The translations under genes were made by a program, and so were the position numbers. The notes beneath the pieces were generated by a model that ran no database searches, was not told where the DNA came from, and saw nothing but the letters and a program-made list of their open reading frames with translations. A DNA stretch of 64,000 bases from Deltaproteobacteria bacterium. Its GTDB lineage: Bacteria > Myxococcota > Myxococcia > SLRQ01. Below, one piece after another: positions 4,918 to 64,000 of this stretch (its first letter is position 1; each line of letters starts with the position of its first letter). The stretch is taken from assembly GCA_029210625.1 (NCBI GenBank), contig JARGFU010000001.1, forward strand, positions 133,806 to 197,805. The letters run 5' to 3'.

Positions 4918-6765
4918 GTGTGCAGCGACTGCAGCGACACCGATCCCGACAACTGGGACTCCTGCGCGACCTGCGTGGACGAGGACGGGGACGGCGCCTA
5001 CGCGGGCTGCGACGCCTACGTGATGCGGGCCGGCGAGGACTGCGAGCCCCTCGACCCCGCCATCCACCCGGGCGCCACCGAGATCTGCGACAACATCGAC
5101 AACGACTGCGTCGGCGGCGTCGACGACAACGTCGCCTACCTCGACTACTACCTGGATGGCGACGGCGACGGCTACGGGGACGGCGGCGCGGCCCCGGTGA
5201 ACGACTGCACGCCCCCGGCCGGGCGCGTGCCGGACGCCACCGACTGCGACGACGGGGACCCCAACAACTGGGCCTCCTGCAGCGCCTGCGTCGACGGGGA
5301 CGGCGACGGCACCTACGCCGGCTGTGACGCCTACCAGACGATCCTCGAGGACTGCGACGACGGGGACGGCGCCAACTTCCCCGGCAACACCGAGGTCTGC
5401 GACGGCGCGGACAACGACTGCGCCGGCGGGGCCGACGACGGCCTGACCTTCAGCGACTACTGGCCGGACATCGACGGCGACGGCTTCGGCGACGCGCTCG
5501 CGGCGCCGGTGAGCGCCTGCGCGCCCCCCGCAGGCACGGCGCCGAACGGCAACGACTGCGCCGACGGCGACCCGACGGTGAACCCCGGCGCCGTCGAGAT
5601 CTGCGAGGACACCATCGACAACGACTGCGTCGGCGGCGACGCGGTCTGCGCCTGCGGCAACGGCTCCCTCGAGAGCGGCGAGGTCTGCGACGACGGCAAC
5701 CTCTGCGCCTACGACGGCTGCTCCGGCGATCCGGCCGGCGCGGTGAACCAGTGCCAGGGCGAGGAGACCGTCGTCCTCACCACCCTGGCCCTCGGCACCG
5801 GCACCACCGGTTTCGACCTCGACGGCGACGGCACCATCGACAACCGGCTGGGCTCCAACGGGACCCTGCGGGGCGAGTTCAACAACATCCTCGCGGGCAC
5901 CCTCGACGACGGCAGCCTGATGCAGGTCTTCACCATCGCCGCCCTCGACAACGTGCCCTACAGCGGCACCGGCACGCCGGGCTACCAGGACGATCCCGAC
6001 GTGGTGGTCTCCCTCTACCCGACCGTCGATCCCGCCTGCACCACCGGCCCGGTCTACGGCGCCGCCAACCCGCCGCCCTGGATCGCGGGCCCCTGGCCGG
6101 TGGAGCTCTACAGCGACGCCGACGCCTGGGACACCGCGACCTGCGTCGGGGGCGCCCAGATCACCGACGCCGACGACCCGGCCAACGGCATCTACCCCAC
6201 CGGGGGAGGCCAGCTCGCGAACCCGGCCCCGCCGGCCCCCTACCTCCGGGCCCACGCCAGCCAGCTCTCCCTGGCGCTGGTCGGCGTCCAGACCGTCCTG
6301 CACGACGCCACCATCGAGGCCACGGTGGTGGACGACACGGCGGGCATCTCCGCGCTCACCAACGGCGTCCTCGGCGGAGCCGTGGCAGCCAGGAGCCTCT
6401 GGGGCATCCCCCTCGACGGCCCCGGCGGCAGCTGCGAGACCGCCCTCCACGCGGTCCGGGCGGTCGCCGGCGTCCCGGACATCGACATCGACGGCGACGG
6501 GTCCATGACGATCTCGGTGAGCTGCGCCGGCGGCTGGCTGGCCTGCCTGGTGCCCTGCGGTGGGGCGATCTGGTCCCTGGGCGACTGCGTGGACGAGGCC
6601 GGCACGGTCATCCCGGACAGCGACCTGAACGGCGATGGCGTCGTCTCCGACGGTGAGTGTCTCCTCGATCCCCGGATGGACGACGGCTACTCGGCGGGCA
6701 TGACCTTCACCGCCCAGGAGGTCAGCGTCACCCGCCAGGTCAGCGCGAGCACCTACTGCCCCTGA
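4918..6765 (+). CDS. Cysteine-rich repeat protein, continuation. Same frame as 4357..4815 and has no signal peptide of its own. Carries further MopE-like motifs and a C-terminal domain.
   Basis: Listed with a GTG start at 4918, but the frame is open and repeat-like immediately after the TAA at 4813-4815. Carries at least 6 more CDDGDPxxxPGAxExCDxxDNDC units. Confidence 0.55.
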   Translation: MCSDCSDTDPDNWDSCATCVDEDGDGAYAGCDAYVMRAGEDCEPLDPAIHPGATEICDNIDNDCVGGVDDNVAYLDYYLDGDGDGYGDGGAAPVNDCTPPAGRVPDATDCDDGDPNNWASCSACVDGDGDGTYAGCDAYQTILEDCDDGDGANFPGNTEVCDGADNDCAGGADDGLTFSDYWPDIDGDGFGDALAAPVSACAPPAGTAPNGNDCADGDPTVNPGAVEICEDTIDNDCVGGDAVCACGNGSLESGEVCDDGNLCAYDGCSGDPAGAVNQCQGEETVVLTTLALGTGTTGFDLDGDGTIDNRLGSNGTLRGEFNNILAGTLDDGSLMQVFTIAALDNVPYSGTGTPGYQDDPDVVVSLYPTVDPACTTGPVYGAANPPPWIAGPWPVELYSDADAWDTATCVGGAQITDADDPANGIYPTGGGQLANPAPPAPYLRAHASQLSLALVGVQTVLHDATIEATVVDDTAGISALTNGVLGGAVAARSLWGIPLDGPGGSCETALHAVRAVAGVPDIDIDGDGSMTISVSCAGGWLACLVPCGGAIWSLGDCVDEAGTVIPDSDLNGDGVVSDGECLLDPRMDDGYSAGMTFTAQEVSVTRQVSASTYCP

Positions 6766-23997: not shown

Positions 23998-24164
23998 GGG
24001 GAGCTCCTGGACCGAGGGTTTCGACTCGGCGCGTCAGAGAGCAACCCTCGTGCCATCCCAAGTGCCTGAAAATACGAGACCGGAGCCGTCCATACTCTGA
24101 TCGATCGCCTGGATCGATCAGGACGTGGACGCTCCGATCCCGGCCCCCCCCTCGGGGACCCCCC

Positions 24165-52255: not shown

Positions 52256-55200
52256 TCAGACGAGCGCGGAGAGGTAGTCGGCGCGCAGGCCCTCGTCGCG
52301 CAGGACGTCGTAGGCGTCGTCGAGGCCGCGGCGGATCTCCTCGAGCTTGCCCCAGAGATCCTGGTAGATGACGTCGGCGTAGCGGGCCGGCTGCATCTCC
52401 CGGGAGAGGCGCTCGTAGGCCTCCTTGATCTCGTAGGCGGTGGCGTCGCGGGTGACGCCGAGGATCTCGAAGTAGTCGGCGTCCAGCGCCTGGCGGAACT
52501 TCTCCTCGATGCGGGTGCGGTCGATCACCGCCTGGCTCTGCGCCTCCTCGGGAGTCGAGGCCCGGCCCTCGGGCATGGCGCCGCGCACGCGCACGGAGAC
52601 CTGACCAGTCGACTCGAGGACGTAGAGCACCTGGTAGGTGGGCTCCTCGCCGAGCCCCGAGAGGAAGACCAGCTCCTCGGCGGAGTGGAGCCCATCGACG
52701 CTGGTGGCCACCCGCCGCTCGCGGGCCGAGAAGCCGAAGACCTGCCAGTCGCCCGCGGTCTCGGTGGGAGCGAGCACGGTGGCCGGCCCGCCGAGGCAGC
52801 GGTGGATGCGATCGAGGGTGTACTTGCGGCGGATGCCCTCGGCGACGAGCGCGAAGGGATGATCGGGCAGGGCCACCCGGGCGTCCTCCGGGCAGACGGC
52901 CTGGATCCAGCGCCAGCGCCCCTCCTCCTCGGAGAAGGCCCCGAAGAGCGCCGCCTGGGCCTGGGCCCGGACCGTGTCGTAGAGCTCCTGGGCCTTGAGC
53001 TGCCCGGCCTCGACCAGGGCGACGGCCGCCTGGCGGGGGAGCAGATCGCCCTCGGCCCGGATCTGCCGCGCCTGCTGGCGGGTGATCCGGCCCAGGCGGC
53101 AGGCGACCTCCTCCAGGCGCTCCGCCGCCGAGGTGGAGCTGGCGCCCACGACCCGGCCGAGCTCGACGAAGACGGCGCGGTTCACCGCGGCGCCGTGGAT
53201 CTCCAGCACGCCGGTGGCCCGGGCCCGGTAGAGGTCGGCCAGGAGCCGCGGCAGATCCCGCTCGAGGAGATCGCCCTCCTCGGGGAAGGGCGCGCCGGTG
53301 GGGTTCGGCTGGATGTCCTGGGGCGCCGGCGAGTGCGGCGCGGGCGCCGGCGGCGGCGCGGGGTTGCGGGGCGGGAGGGGCTGCGGCATGGGCGGCGGCT
53401 CCACGGGAGGCGGCGGCGGGGGCGCGGCCTGCTGCACCGGCGCCGGGGCGACGGGCGCGGGCGCCATCGCGGGGGCGGCGAGGCCTCCGTAGGAGGGTGC
53501 CGGCGGAGGCGGAGGTGGGGGCGGCTGCTCGGCGATGATCGGCGCCGGGGGCGGCGGCGGTACGGCGATGATCGGCGCGGGAGGCGGTGGAGGTGGCGGG
53601 GCAGGCGTCGGGGGCTCGTAGCCCCCCCAGGTGGGCGCGGCCAGGGCCTCGGGGTCGAGCCCCTCGGCACCCTCCACCACCCCCTCCTCCGTGGCGGTCT
53701 CGGCGGCACCCCAGCCTGCGGCGGCGCTGGCCTCGATCTCGGGTCCGCCCCCGAAGGGATCGAGGAGCATCGAGCCCTCTTCGACCTCGGCCGGCGGGGC
53801 CGGGATCGGAGGCTCGGGCTCCGGGTCGGGCGCATCGAGATCGATCGCCAGCCGGCTGCTGCGCTCGACGGGCTCTCCCTGCAGGGACTCCAGCTCGTAG
53901 GTGGTCGGACCGCCGGCGCCCCAGCCCGAGGCCCGGGTCGGCGCAACCTCGCGCTCGAAGGAGGTCCACCCTCCCTCGACCACCGCCGAGCGAGCGGGCC
54001 GTGGCGCCGGAGCAGGTGCGGGGGCGGGCGCCGGGGGCTCGGGCTCGGGCGGCGTGGCCGCCACCTCGATGGGCCCGGCGCCGGGTTCGTCCGGGAGCGC
54101 CTCGTCCTCGAGCATCGACTCGAGGTCCTCGAGATCCTCGTCGCGCTCGGCCTCCTGCTGGGCCCGGCGCTCGGCCTCGGCCTGGGCAGCCCGCTCGGCC
54201 TCGGCCTCGGCCAGGCGGCGGGCCTCCTCGCGGGCCTTCTCCTTCGCGGCGCGCTTGGCCGCCTTGCGGGCAGCCTCCTCCGCCTCGGCCTTGCGGCGCA
54301 GCTCCTCCGCCTCACGGCGGGCTTCCTCCGCGGCCAGGCGGGCAGCCTCCTCGGCCGCGAGCCGCGCCGCCTCGGCCTCGGCCTCCCGGCGCGCTGCCTC
54401 CTCGGCCGCCTGACGCTCCGCCTCCTCGGCCGCGAGCCGCGCTGCCTCCTCGGCCGCCTGACGCTCCGCTTCCTCGGCCGCCTTCTGCGCTGCCGCCTCT
54501 TCGGCCGCGAGCCGCGCTGCCTCTTCCTCGGCCGCCTGACGCTCTGCCTCCTCGGCCGCGAGCCGCGCCGCCTCTTCCTCGGCCGCCCTCTGCGCTGCCG
54601 CCTCTTCGGCCGCGAGCCGCGCCGCCTCTTCCTCGGCCGCCTGACGCTCTGCCGCCTCTTCGGCCGCGAGCCGCGCTGCCTCTTCCTCGGCCGCCTGACG
54701 CTCTGCCTCCTCGGCCGCGAGCCGCGCCGCCTCTTCCTCGGCCGCCTTCTGCGCTGCCTCCTCGGCGGCCTTGCGGGCCTCCTCCTCGAGGGCCCGCGCC
54801 CTGGCGTCCTCCTCCTCCCGGCGCTTGCGCGCGGCCGCGACCTTCTTCTTGGCCTCCGCCGCGGCGCGCTGCTTCATCGCCTCGGCCCGGCGCTTCGCCT
54901 CGGCCTCGGCCCGCTCCTTCACCAGGGCCTCTTCCTCTTCCGGGCTGGCGGCCTCGGCGCCGGCGGCGATCTCCCGGGCGGCCCGCTCCAGGTCGGCGGT
55001 GCGCTGGCGCTCGAGGGCGTCGGCCACCTCTCCCGCCGAGGCCGCGGTGACGGCGTCGTCGTCGGAGCCGGCCTCGGCGTCGCCCATCATCTCGGAGCCG
55101 ATGTCACCGAAGAGCTCGTCGGCCAGCTCCCCGGAGCGGCCCGGCTCGGTGACCTCCCAGGCGCCGGTGAAGCCCCGCTCCTCCTCCTCGGGGGCCGGGG

Positions 55201-60443: not shown

Positions 60444-61484
60444 CTACAGCAGCTCGAGCGAGGTGGCGACCCAGGCCTCGACCTCGGCCCAGCGCTCGAA
60501 GACCCAGGCGGCCCGCCCTTCCGCCGGGATGCTCGCGGCGGGGATCCGCCAGAGGCGCACCCGCAGGCGCCGCCCGACCAGCGCGCCCCCGAAGAACTCG
60601 GCGAAGCTCTCCACCCCCTCGAAGCCGGTGTGGGCGAGGATCACCACGTCGGTCTTTGGCGCCGCCTCCAGCAGCGCCAGGACGCCACCGAGCCGCGGGG
60701 GCAGGACGTGGTGGAGGGCCTCGGCGCGCTCGACCAGCGCCGCTTCCCCCGCCTCGCGCAGCCGCGCCAGCGCCCGCTCGCGCTTGGCCGGGGAGAAGCG
60801 GGTCCCCTCCGGGAAGATGAGCACCCCGCTGCGATCGTCGAGGTCCCGGCCCAGCCCGGCCACCGCCGCGACGGCCTCCTCGCTGCGCCGGCCGGAGCGA
60901 TCCACGAAGGCGTTGGGGAGGCGTCGGCCGACGACGTCGAGGCAGGGATCCCAGAGCAGCTCCTCCTTGAGGACGTAGCGCAGCAGGAGGTCGTGGGGGT
61001 TGGCGAGGACGAAGGCGGCCAGCACCGTGTCGGCGGTGCTGGCGTGGCGCACCCAGAGGAGGAAGGGCGGCGGGAGCACCTCCGCGGCGCCCTCCACCTC
61101 CAGCGTCATGCCGTAGATGCGCAGGGCCCCGCCGAAGAGGTGGTCGCTCCACCAGCGCTGGAGGATCCGGTTGCGCTCGAGGTAGCGGGCGTGGCCGCCG
61201 AGGCGGCCCCCGTGGGCCCGAAGCCAGATCGCGCCCGCGGAGAGGAGGCCGGCGGCCTCCAGCCCGAGGTAGAGCCCGAAGAAGAGGACGGCTCGCAGCT
61301 TCCCGGCCCGGCGTCGCCCCGCCCCCGCGAGGTCGGCGAGCCCGGCGAGGAGGAGCCAGGCCGGCGCCAGCCCCCAGACGAGGGCGAAGAGGAAGAGCAC
61401 GAAGGGGATCGAGAGGAGGCGGCGGCGCCAGATCTGCCAGAGGGTCTCGCCGCGCCGGCGCCCGATCGGCAGCGGCCCCGTCAC
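60444..61484 (-). CDS. Lysophospholipid (1-acyl-glycerol-3-phosphate-type) acyltransferase, membrane-anchored
   Basis: Carries the RHASTAD (HX4D) and FPEGTR motifs. Two N-terminal TM helices. Confidence 0.7.
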   Translation of the reverse strand: MTGPLPIGRRRGETLWQIWRRRLLSIPFVLFLFALVWGLAPAWLLLAGLADLAGAGRRRAGKLRAVLFFGLYLGLEAAGLLSAGAIWLRAHGGRLGGHARYLERNRILQRWWSDHLFGGALRIYGMTLEVEGAAEVLPPPFLLWVRHASTADTVLAAFVLANPHDLLLRYVLKEELLWDPCLDVVGRRLPNAFVDRSGRRSEEAVAAVAGLGRDLDDRSGVLIFPEGTRFSPAKRERALARLREAGEAALVERAEALHHVLPPRLGGVLALLEAAPKTDVVILAHTGFEGVESFAEFFGGALVGRRLRVRLWRIPAASIPAEGRAAWVFERWAEVEAWVATSLELL

Positions 61485-62026
61485 CGCCCGGCCAGGCCCT
61501 CGATCGCCGCCATCACCTCGTCGAGGGGCGCGTGATCGCCCGCCTCCCGGCTGCGCTGCTGGTAGACCGTCTTGCCAGCGGCGGTGATGAGGAAGACCCC
61601 GCCGAGCTGCCAGGGGTCACCCTTCACCGCCGTCTGCCGGAAGCCCGCCTTGAGGGCCCGCAGGGTGTGCCCGGGGCTGCGCAGGGAGAAGGCCCCCCAG
61701 GCCCCGCCGGCCTTCAGCCCGGCGGCGGCGTAGGCCTTCATCTCGGGGTCGACCCAGAGCTCGAAGTCGATCCCCGCCTCCTCCCGGAAGGCGCGGGCGT
61801 AGTCCGGCGTCCCGTTGCCGATCACCACCAGCCGCACGCCCCTCGCCTCGATCTCGGCTTGCGCGCCGCGCAACTGCGCGACCTGCTCGCGGCAGAAGAT
61901 TCACCCGAAGTGGCGGATGAAGACGAGGAGGACCGGCCCCCGCTCCCAGGCCGAGCGCACCACCACCGGCGCGCCTCCATCGTCGACCAGCTCGATCGCC
62001 GCGAGCTTCTTCGCCGGATCACTCAA
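61481..62026 (-). CDS. Candidate selenoprotein: PRXL2/PAMM-family (AhpC/TSA_2) thioredoxin-fold protein with TGA (61901..61903) read as Sec in a U-x-x-C redox motif
   Basis: TTG start with a GGAGGTGA RBS, overlapping the SDR stop. Two track ORFs lie in the same frame, separated only by a TGA: …LLVFIRHFG-[TGA]-IFCREQVAQL…GGVFLITAAG. The motif G[C/U]xxCRE matches PRXL2A RRPGCFLCREE. A GC-rich hairpin starts about 10 nt 3' of the TGA. Confidence 0.5.
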
Positions 62027-62997
62027 GGCCTCACCTCCACGTCGCAGATCTCCTCGCAGAAGCGCCAGAGGGCCTCCCGCTCGGCGGGCGCTTCCCGCGT
62101 CCCGGGCAGGAGGTAGGGCGAGACGACTCGCCGGTCGAAGAAGAGCTTGCCGCTCTCGCCCTCCACCCGCTCGGCCACCGCCAGCCACAGCGCGGTGTCC
62201 GCCCCCTCCTCGGCCGTGCGCAGGCGCTTCTTCGTGAAGCGGTAGAAGGCCGGGAGCGAGCGCTCGACCCCCGGGGTCGCGGCCCAGCCCGGGTGCATGG
62301 CGTTGACGGTGGTCCCCGAGCCCCGCAGGACCTCGGCCCACTGCGCGGCCTGCACCACCTGCGCTCGCTTGGTGTGGGCGTAGGCGACCACGCCGTCGTA
62401 GGGGCCTTCCGTGGCGCGCATCGCCTCGAGGTCCAGGCGCCGGGCGTACATGCCCCCCGAGGAGACGTAGATCACCCGCGAGGAGGCGAGCCGCTCGCGC
62501 AGCAGGTGGTTGAGCAGGAAGGGCCCCACCACGTGGGTCGCCAGCGTCAGCTCGAGGCCCTCCTCGGTCAGCTCTCGCTCCGGCGGGAGCAGGCCGGCGT
62601 TGTGCACCAGCACGTCGATCTTGCGGTCGCCCTCCCGGCCCTCCAGCTCGGCGGCGAAGGCCCGGATCGACGCGGGGCTAGCGAGGTCGATCACCTCGAG
62701 GTGCAGCTCACCGTTGCCGGTCTCCTCGATCAGGGCCTGGCGCGCCGCCTCGCCGCGCTCGGCGCTGCGGCAGAGCAGGTGGACCCGGGCGCCCAGGCCC
62801 GCCAGGCCGCGGGCCACGGCGAGCCCCAGGCCGCTGTTGGCGCCGGTGACCAGGCAGACCTTCCCCGCCATCGAGCGCTGGAGATCCTCGGGATGGAAGG
62901 CGCGCTGATGGCGCAGGAATCCCGTGCGATCGAAGGAGTAGTAGATGCTCGCGTCGAGCAGTCGATCGAAGATCCCCATGTCCCGGCCTCCCACCAC
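62023..62997 (-). CDS. SDR-family short-chain dehydrogenase/reductase
   Basis: TGANSGLG (NAD(P) binding) and YAHTK (YxxxK). The start could be MGIF at 62979. Confidence 0.8.
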   Translation of the reverse strand: MVGGRDMGIFDRLLDASIYYSFDRTGFLRHQRAFHPEDLQRSMAGKVCLVTGANSGLGLAVARGLAGLGARVHLLCRSAERGEAARQALIEETGNGELHLEVIDLASPASIRAFAAELEGREGDRKIDVLVHNAGLLPPERELTEEGLELTLATHVVGPFLLNHLLRERLASSRVIYVSSGGMYARRLDLEAMRATEGPYDGVVAYAHTKRAQVVQAAQWAEVLRGSGTTVNAMHPGWAATPGVERSLPAFYRFTKKRLRTAEEGADTALWLAVAERVEGESGKLFFDRRVVSPYLLPGTREAPAEREALWRFCEEICDVEVRP

Positions 62998-63228
62998 TCT
63001 AGCCCCCTCCGGCCCCGGGGCACCCCCCGGAAGGTGAGAACCAGGCGCCTTTTCGGGAGGAGGAGGAAGGGAGGGGTCTGGGCAGGAAGGACGACCGCCT
63101 CTTGCCGGGGAGGGAGTCGTTCGAGGCTCCAGCCTAGCCTACAGGGGGGCCTCGGGTATGAGGCCTTCACCCGGCCGAAGAGCTTTCATCTGAAGCTGCT
63201 CGGGTCCTAGAGGCGCTGGTCTAGACGC

Positions 63229-63351
63229 GACACGGCTCACGGCTCACGGCTCATCGAGGTCGACAGCGCGCCCGGGAGGTGAATCGGCTTGCCTCTTCAC
63301 CTTCCTGGACTACCGAGGCACCACCGTGAGCCGTGAGCCGTGAGCCGTGTC
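63229..63351. repeat. Perfect 25-bp inverted repeat, each arm a heptamer (cggctca) triplicated, flanking a 73-nt core that has its own nested dyad (GGAGGTGAA…TTCACCTTCC). MITE-like element or long structured RNA.
   Basis: gacacggctcacggctcacggctca (63229-63253) and tgagccgtgagccgtgagccgtgtc (63327-63351) were read directly from the sequence. Confidence 0.6.
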
Positions 63352-63541
63352 GGTCACCCACACACCTCGAAAGCGAGCCCGGCACCGGAGCACCAATCCA
63401 TGCCCCTACCGAAGTCGGGCAAGGGTGTCAGGGTGAGAAAGGAACTTCCCGGAGGGGTAGGAAGAATAGCCGCCCTTTTGGCGAGGCGGAGTGAACGTAG
63501 ACTGAGTTATCAGACCCAGGGCGGGGCTCGTTCGAGTCAGG

Positions 63542-63880
63542 CTAGGGGGCGCCAACCCGCGCACGGCGCAGCGCCAGGGCCCCGAGGAAGCCGACGCCGA
63601 GCAGGGCGAGCAGCGCGCCGGGCGCGGTCGCGGTCTGGCAGCCGCCCTTGTCGTCGCGGGGCGTGCCCTCGACGCAGTAGAGGCATTCGTCGACGTGGGT
63701 ATCCGGGTTGTCGGTGCAGCCGCTCACGGGGCTGCAGACGCCGGTGCCGGTGGGGTAGAGGTCGCAGGCGTCACCTGCGGCCTTGTCCTCACAGGCCCAC
63801 CACGGCGCCGGCGCGTTGGCCCGGGCCGGCGCGGCCCAGAGGATGCAGACGAGCGGGAGCAGCCAGAGAAGGTGACGCAT
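63542..63880 (-). CDS. Small secreted Cys-rich protein with a MYXO-CTERM-type C-terminal sorting tag
   Basis: Signal peptide MRHLLWLLPLVCILWAAPARA and 8 Cys. The C-terminal GCQTATAPGALLALLGVGFLGALALRRARVG (Cys, hydrophobic helix, Arg cluster) fits the MYXO-CTERM pattern. Confidence 0.6.
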   Translation of the reverse strand: MRHLLWLLPLVCILWAAPARANAPAPWWACEDKAAGDACDLYPTGTGVCSPVSGCTDNPDTHVDECLYCVEGTPRDDKGGCQTATAPGALLALLGVGFLGALALRRARVGAP

Positions 63881-64000
63881 CGATTTCCTCCCCGCATCCC
63901 TTCCGGAAGAGACGCGACCGCGGACCAGTCTCCACCGCCGCCCCGCCTGGTGACAAGGTAGAAGCCCTCCATGGTGACCTACCTCAGCGCCCTCGCGATC

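Follow-up and report, generated by a model that had tools for sequence, protein, structure and literature searches.

Inverted pairs of heptamer microsatellites that form long hairpins have been reported before from other bacteria. In Xanthomonas, Rehm et al. (2015, PMC4692102) reported 70-75 convergent inverted pairs of GGGAATC arrays per genome and found that the pairs are preserved between species while their lengths vary. The locus presented here lies in a 64-kb stretch of DNA (the window, i.e., the whole of the sequence analysed) and resembles these pairs in that it consists of opposite-strand arrays of one heptamer, each of few units, which are close together, intergenic, and able to form a stem-loop. 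A type (pair or single) that remains stable while the length varies, as has been shown in Xanthomonas (PMC4692102), would be a further likeness. The unit, however, is different: neither CGGCTCA nor its complement TGAGCCG contains a G or C tract of at least three bases, so there is no quadruplex potential and no counterpart to the G-rich unit of Xanthomonas. Moreover, in place of dozens of pairs per genome, there is one pair within 64 kb, and the 73-nt core between its arms is palindromic in its own right.

A second system is found in the 5'-UTR of hmw1 (hmw1A) of H. influenzae, where RNase III cuts a long hairpin in which a heptamer SSR makes up one of the two arms (PMC12721329). The likeness consists in a heptamer SSR that serves as an arm of a long hairpin on the sense strand upstream of a gene, with the length of the stem depending on the number of repeats. 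In hmw1, however, the other arm is a G-rich region without repeats and the SSR has at least 11 units, whereas in the window both arms are arrays of three units. Transcription, cleavage by RNase III, and variation in copy number have all been shown for hmw1, whereas the likeness of the window's element to it is one of sequence. The downstream genes also differ, since that of hmw1 encodes a surface adhesin and that of the present element an oxidoreductase.

A third body of work concerns template switching, which turns imperfect inverted repeats into perfect ones and homogenises their arms (PMC5941160, PMC7202029, PMC8604942). The quasi-palindromes studied in E. coli and Proteobacteria (PMC5941160, PMC7202029) are like the present element in that pairing is perfect within the arms, to a degree beyond chance, but imperfect in the sequence next to them, and the same arm-homogenising mechanism is proposed for both. 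The arms studied there are of about 8-20 nt, whereas those in the window are perfect over 26 nt and made of tandem units; slippage must, therefore, join template switching in the model.

Direct repeats of another heptamer, TAACTGA, occur in Beggiatoaceae and cyanobacteria; most of them directly precede a start codon, and a single one is inverted (PMC4679880). The CGGCTCA arrays considered below share with them that a single heptamer is repeated in a short tandem array, that most arrays are intergenic, and that they are phylogenetically scattered and have variant heptamers alongside; unlike them, the listed CGGCTCA arrays are found mainly on the 3' side of genes. As summarised in two papers that cite Mrazek et al. 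2007 (PMC4692102, PMC4679880), heptameric SSRs are the over-represented class of long SSRs in many bacteria, and this over-representation is attributed to polymerase slippage.

The Intergenic Region and Its Genes

The element occupies an intergenic region of 562 nt, which is unusually long and which extends from the stop codon at 63542 to the ATG at 62979 (Table 1). On the minus strand, the hairpin begins 190 nt past the stop codon of the upstream gene. The downstream gene is the first of a cluster composed of SDR, AhpC-TSA_2, and acyltransferase genes. An earlier note on this DNA, made from the sequence of the window, had called the upstream gene a MYXO-CTERM gene; this label can be kept only as borderline because the match to TIGR03901, at 19.3 bits, falls just short of the cutoff of 20. 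The same note had considered the island to be without a credible ORF and, at 63360-63540, lower in GC, and both statements hold: the small ORFs of the island have a GC3 of 0.58-0.74, compared with 0.92-0.96 in the flanking genes, and match no family, and the GC content is 0.63-0.68 in the island and 0.72-0.76 in the genes.

Table 1. Positions of the element, its parts, and the neighbouring features within the window.
Feature	Position	Strand	Details
Downstream gene, SDR oxidoreductase	62023-62979	-	ATG at 62979, GGGAGG 8 nt upstream
Complete stem-loop, ~133 nt	63224-63356	-	55 pairs (4 G-U) on the minus strand; 53 pairs (2 G-U) on the plus strand
Left arm	63228-63253		CGACA, then three perfect CGGCTCA heptamers = CGACACGGCTCACGGCTCACGGCTCA
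Imperfect palindromic core, 73 nt	63254-63326		Holds a nested dyad and an apical loop near 63289-63290
Right arm	63327-63352		Three perfect TGAGCCG heptamers, then TGTCG; exact reverse complement of the left arm
Two short terminator-like hairpins, pyrimidine-rich tails	63445-63489	-	2 found, 0.5 expected
Upstream gene, secreted Cys-rich protein of 112 aa, MYXO-CTERM tail borderline	63542-63880	-	

The Inverted Arms

The two arms pair at 26 of 26 positions. Perfect inverted arms of 25 nt had been claimed at 63229-63253 and 63327-63351; they are present and slightly longer than that. The triplication of the heptamers in both arms, which had been claimed too, is evident from the perfect period-7 arrays found by TRF (3.3 and 3.7 copies, 100% matches) at 63231-63253 on the plus strand and 63324-63349 on the minus strand, with a separation of 70 nt. 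At 91% complementarity, the inverted repeat reaches 33 nt (63228-63260 and 63320-63352).

The perfect structure is significant and beyond chance. The longest perfect inverted repeat in the 64-kb window is that of 26 nt, compared with 12-16 nt in 30 shuffles, and the arm pair ranks top among the inverted repeats of the whole window. A search of the window with the 23-mer of the arm, allowing up to three mismatches, found two sites only, which are the arms themselves, with 0.01 expected.

The Core and the Fold

Inside the core lies a second, nested imperfect dyad, as the earlier note had described; its halves of 18 nt (63271-63288 and 63291-63308) have 78% complementarity. The nested dyad and the outer arms have a common centre at about 63290, and the whole of 63224-63356 is, therefore, one quasi-palindrome. 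When folded as RNA, this element has a dG of -90.9 kcal/mol on the plus strand (z -7.9) and -100.6 kcal/mol on the minus strand (z -8.3), values that support, on thermodynamic grounds, the earlier suggestion that about 120 nt of RNA could form a very stable hairpin. When folded as single-stranded DNA, it has a z of -8.9. The minus strand, which has the sense sequence of the two flanking genes, folds better by about 6-10 kcal/mol. The strand preference based on G-U pairs is small (four pairs versus two).

The core by itself has a mild structure only (dG -32.3, z -1.96), and the stretches of the island that lie beyond the hairpin are no more structured than shuffled sequence (z -0.30 and +1.49). 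The exceptional feature of the region is, therefore, the outer stem built from repeats. A 12-nt complement to the core near the start of the SDR gene (63026-63037 and 63297-63308) was also considered, and its pairing with the core was judged no different from chance.

CGGCTCA as a Generic Microsatellite

The arms are an ordinary heptanucleotide microsatellite. The STRR heptamers of cyanobacteria are intergenic heptamer arrays of the same kind. An exact search for three consecutive CGGCTCA units in contigs representing one genome per species returned at least 120 stretches, and the hosts among the listed matches include Streptomyces and other Actinomycetota, Acidobacteriota, Gemmatimonadota, Treponema (Spirochaetota), Myxococcota MAGs, and Gammaproteobacteria, among others. 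In these listed loci, the arrays have from 3 to 22 units and unrelated flanks, and many of them are next to arrays of heptamers that differ by one base, for example ACGGCTT, ACAGCTC, AGGGCTC, and ACGACTC. The listed loci also hold 66 further perfect arrays, of at least three units, of other heptamers.

One could imagine that CGGCTCA is a special, conserved motif. This idea was rejected because control heptamers give counts of the same order: in viral contigs, three units of CGGCTCA were found at 13 loci, and three composition-matched heptamers were found at 10, 1, and 5 loci.

The listed CGGCTCA arrays are overwhelmingly intergenic. By a rough GC3-based gene call, which was made for the high-GC loci only, the arrays lie between convergent genes in 23 cases, between tandem genes in 32, and between divergent genes in 2; the element of the window is in a tandem intergenic region. 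An array that reads TGAGCCG has a stop in every frame, and many genes terminate inside such arrays.

Inverted Array Pairs in Other Genomes

An inverted partner array no more than 400 nt away was found in 7 of the 120 listed CGGCTCA loci (L024, L028, L043, L056, L081, L083, and L102), where we put the chance expectation at about 0.001 partners per locus. These seven pairs fold into long hairpins with a dG of -61 to -149 kcal/mol. Arrays of other heptamers have such a partner in 7 of 66 cases, and, overall, some 6-10% of the heptamer arrays in the listed loci are paired with a hairpin-forming inverted partner. The inverted-pair architecture, thus, recurs regardless of the heptamer sequence. Mirrored heptamer hairpins were encountered in Myxococcota, Gammaproteobacteria, Acidobacteriota, and Gemmatimonadota. 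The hairpin comes right after a gene in four of the seven listed loci, two of which are between convergent genes.

A comparison between the window and the listed pairs revealed no similarity in core or flank, which means that the listed pairs arose independently. The order of the arms is TGAGCCG first in all seven listed pairs and CGGCTCA first in the window. The CGGCTCA-first order has no other instance in the listed genome loci or in two metagenome scans, which makes the window's element an atypical member of the set. The pattern for these scans specified the window's arm order with at least two units per arm and was verified on the window's own element; spacers of 58-88 nt and of 4-34 nt gave 0 matches each. 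A search of viral contigs for the opposite, TGAGCCG-first order likewise gave 0 matches. The arms of L043 are made of the same two heptamer types in differing copy numbers.

The listed loci suggest that heptamer arrays gather at the 3' ends of genes and that about one in ten has an inverted partner, in several phyla. The association of heptamer arrays with gene 3' ends and with mirrored hairpins is apparently general. If the pattern holds genome-wide, it would tie two mutational processes, slippage and template switching, to the way in which stable stem-loops arise and provide a simple route to length-variable RNA structures beyond the classic contingency loci of pathogens. A bolder proposal, to which we would give little credence, is that mirrored heptamer-microsatellite hairpins form a class of tunable structural elements, of RNA or DNA, that crosses phyla, made from any heptamer and situated mostly just 3' of genes; their arms would be kept in register by template switching, their stems would change in 7-bp steps, and they would serve, in both directions, as transcript-end or RNase III elements. 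The copy in the window would then be one with the rarer arm order and in a leader or intercistronic position.

A Proposed Origin

What, then, is the element? We are fairly confident of its identity and of the class of its origin: it would be a single-copy, locally generated long quasi-palindrome, with an outer 26-bp stem in which CGGCTCA x3 faces TGAGCCG x3, and it would be neither transposable nor a member of the described RNA families. The starting point may have been a pre-existing, imperfect inverted repeat in the intergenic region. A 7-nt unit on one arm could then have been expanded via replication slippage, and the second arm could have been rendered identical via intrastrand template switching. 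Such a scheme would account for a perfect outer stem that encloses an older inner stem, about 60-80% paired.

An alternative origin is the inverted duplication of an existing array followed by independent slippage in the two copies. This fits L043 equally well, a locus which indicates that arms can drift independently.

Considered as a whole, the explanation that we somewhat favour is that of a microsatellite-armed quasi-palindrome that was generated locally, by slippage and template switching, and that exerts its effect on the RNA of the minus strand.

A Possible Effect on RNA

Both flanking genes are read from the minus strand, so that any readthrough or leader transcript would carry the stem-loop of about 55 bp. 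The strand of the genes and the slightly better fold of the minus strand together indicate that any effect is most plausibly on minus-strand RNA. There, its most probable activity would be that of a barrier to 3'-exonuclease decay and/or of a cleavage site for RNase III (the double-strand RNase) that parts the upstream mRNA from the SDR operon; the length of the stem would shift in 7-nt steps. With a perfect 26-bp duplex inside so long a stem, it should stop 3'-exonucleases and serve RNase III as a substrate. Among analogues studied by experiment, the 5'-UTR of hmw1 is the nearest (PMC12721329). A genuine role at the RNA level is a tentative proposal and, in our view, somewhat doubtful. The main alternative to such a role is that the element is selectively near-neutral, which may equally be the case.

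A more specific version is that the hairpin belongs to a selected cis-regulatory leader of the SDR/AhpC-TSA_2/acyltransferase operon, that is, to a long 5'-UTR processed by RNase III in which the copy number of the heptamer tunes expression or makes it phase-variable. The ingredients are those of hmw1, namely a long sense-strand hairpin that precedes a gene and has a heptamer SSR as an arm (PMC12721329). The strand that would be transcribed is also the one with the somewhat better fold. A perfect duplex of 26 bp is long enough for RNase III. However, no promoter-like site precedes the hairpin, the island has no sigma-54 match, and the hairpin is about 250 nt from the SDR start codon on the minus strand and does not reach the ribosome-binding site. 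Moreover, a housekeeping-type cluster of oxidoreductase genes would be atypical as a contingency locus. The SDR homologues speak against the leader too. Apart from an NCBI MAG protein on a 530-kb contig, to which the SDR is 100% identical, the nearest of them are at most 67% identical, and at two homologue loci the upstream regions are short (108 and 293 nt), unrelated, and preceded by different neighbours (ferrochelatase in one and a Na/H exchanger in the other); a long leader is, therefore, not conserved for SDR. These findings make a selected leader unlikely.

Non-Coding RNA, Mobile Element, or DNA Site

The unusual length of the intergenic region, its reduced GC content, and the extreme stability of the stem-loop might suggest a free-standing sRNA or a structured ncRNA of an undescribed family that fills the 540-nt island. 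This is highly improbable. A permissive Rfam scan of 62700-64000, of the kind that the earlier note had asked for, gave only chance-level matches, none with an E-value better than 1.2 and none near its gathering score: the handful of weak ones fall well short of these scores, and the top one has 18.5 bits where the gathering score is 66 (E = 1.6). As mentioned above, the island folds like shuffled sequence outside the hairpin. There is, moreover, no promoter-like site in it, and no homologous sequence was found in the listed loci, the metagenome scans, the plasmids, the phages, or the SDR homologue loci.

The earlier note had considered the arms typical of MITEs or of IS-derived terminal repeats, which would make the 26-nt arms the terminal inverted repeats recognised by a transposase. 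In appearance, the element is indeed like a MITE, being small (about 125 nt), intergenic, and bounded by a perfect terminal inverted repeat around a non-coding interior; short internal repeats are also known in the ends of some transposons. Unlike MITEs, however, it has generic microsatellite ends, and neither target-site duplications nor further copies were found. A target-site duplication of 2-12 nt is absent from the boundaries 63228/63352, 63224/63356, and 63229/63351; arms, core, and flanks have no second copy within the 64-kb window; and the core and both flanks are unmatched in the 120 listed genome loci that carry CGGCTCA. In the plasmid collection, the matches are limited to bare heptamer arrays in two Streptomyces plasmids, and in the phage collection, no match to the element was found; the two metagenome scans for this arrangement of arms gave 0 matches as well. 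The four nearest proteins contain no transposase domain. The sequence of the arms is that of a microsatellite, which is seen as plain direct arrays in many phyla, and is not of the type of transposase ends. The multiple copies with target-site duplications that the claim implied were looked for in vain: in the available sequence, the element is single-copy, without flanking direct repeats, and not mobile. It is not supported as a MITE, a reading to which almost no weight can be given. Terminal inverted repeats that bound a short non-coding unit are, taken alone, an unspecific feature.

The gain for the window itself is small and consists in the removal of one false call of a mobile element or an ncRNA. 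For annotation in general, the case is a warning that perfect arms resembling terminal inverted repeats are microsatellite products when they are made of tandem 7-mers.

Finally, a DNA-level site, whether an iteron-like heptamer array for a DNA-binding protein or a palindrome that extrudes a cruciform or pauses replication, is barely conceivable despite the perfect symmetry, the triplicated short units, and the strong fold of the single-stranded DNA, because a 7-bp spacing sets successive sites on different faces of the helix, CGGCTCA arrays of any length occur in unrelated phyla with no common neighbouring gene, and an imperfect spacer of 73 bp is unfavourable to cruciform extrusion.

Terminators and Minor Features of the Island

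The big hairpin, for which a role as terminator had been suggested earlier, is not a canonical intrinsic terminator, since there is no U-tract on either strand and both the stem and the loop are far outside terminator geometry. Past the hairpin, the minus strand reads CGCGUCUAGACC and the plus strand GUCACCCACAC; a terminator scan left the hairpin uncalled. The two short hairpins with pyrimidine-rich tails (Table 1), which lie 53-97 nt past the stop codon of the upstream gene, are better terminator candidates for that gene. A scan of the island for sigma-70-like and sigma-54-like promoters gave no match.

Two other identities were tried and rejected. The first was a retron msr/msd: the neighbouring genes encode the SDR, AhpC-TSA_2, acyltransferase, and small secreted proteins, there is no RT domain, and Rfam gives no match. 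The second was an insertion scar, in the form of a direct repeat of 30-33 nt on either side of the island (63105-63137 and 63516-63545); this repeat is marginal, as 15 of 500 shuffles score equally.

ARAGORN found no tRNA or tmRNA in the whole 64-kb window. The T-loop-like GTTCGAGTC to which the earlier note had drawn attention is indeed present, at 63530-63538, although it belongs to no tRNA or tmRNA found by this program; it is part of a short palindrome, CTCGTTCGAG.

Arm Order and Placement of the Heptamer Arrays

The order of the two arms in hairpins built from this heptamer is biased: among the matches listed from an exact search for three consecutive CGGCTCA units (loci L001-L120), the TGAGCCG arm precedes the CGGCTCA arm in all seven hairpins (L024, L028, L043, L056, L081, L083, and L102). 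The hairpin of the window (63228-63352) has the reverse order, and scans of metagenomes for this CGGCTCA-first order, with spacers of 58-88 and of 4-34 nt, gave no match.

On a rough, GC3-based gene call, nearly all of the CGGCTCA arrays among the matches listed in L001-L120 are intergenic and on the 3' side of a gene, with flanking genes that are convergent in 23 cases, tandem in 32, and divergent in 2. An array reading TGAGCCG has a stop codon whichever of the three frames is read, and among these same listed loci there are many cases in which a gene ends within such an array. A possible reason for the bias in arm order is that incoming ribosomes reach stop codons ahead of the stem.

In the L043 hairpin, from a Steroidobacteraceae MAG, two heptamer types (GTGAGCC and GTGATYG) make up each arm as a compound array; their order is mirrored between the arms, but their copy numbers are unequal.

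Long arrays of CGGCTCA, of up to 17 units, were found in Treponema/Spirochaetaceae from termite-gut assemblies (L008, L025, L029, L032, L036, L063, L103, and L114), often at contig ends; in these loci, the array is directly followed by a conserved flank, TATTATACTTTAGC...GTGTCAAGTACCCAATAG. The recurrence of array plus flank on several contigs of one genome (three in T. primitia ZAS-10) and in related MAGs suggests either a repeat unit that is dispersed in that lineage or a variable tract that lies close to a promoter there.

Other Features of the Island and of the Window

Coordinates of the further features (window positions, except for L043)
Feature	Location	Strand	Description
Compound hairpin	L043 6990-7270		~240 nt; dG -149 kcal/mol; between convergent genes
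Weak direct repeat	63105-63137 and 63516-63545		30-33 nt; CCRGGGNGGGNNTCGTTCGAG...AGSCTAG
Purine-rich tract	63057-63090	+	GGGAGGAGGAGGAAGGGAGGGG...
Match to sigma-54 promoter core	24041-24055	-	TGGCAC-N5-TTGC; perfect match TGGCACGAGGGTTGC
Tandem-repeat region	54258-54817		periods 24/27/51/105 nt over ~500 nt; GCC/CTC-rich
Tandem-repeat region	4926-5573		312-nt unit x 2.1; GAC/TGC codon-rich (Cys/Asp-rich domain repeats)

The direct repeat encloses most of the island, with an overlap between its right copy and the stop codon of the MYXO-CTERM-like gene; an equal or better score was obtained in 15 of 500 shuffles, and the repeat is only marginally above chance. On the sense strand, the purine-rich tract is a long CU-rich tract some 80-110 nt upstream of the start codon of the SDR gene.

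At 61481-62979 of the window, AhpC/TSA_2 is a separate gene downstream of the SDR gene. Because the two are fused in many homologues (459-544 aa, with PF13911; e.g., the proteins P0088, P0089, and P0097), the sequences support the idea that SDR and AhpC/TSA_2 form a functional unit.

Elsewhere, the sigma-54 core is the only zero-mismatch match in the 64-kb window, and the GCC/CTC-rich one of the two large tandem-repeat regions probably encodes, on the other strand, an Ala/Glu-rich coiled repeat protein.
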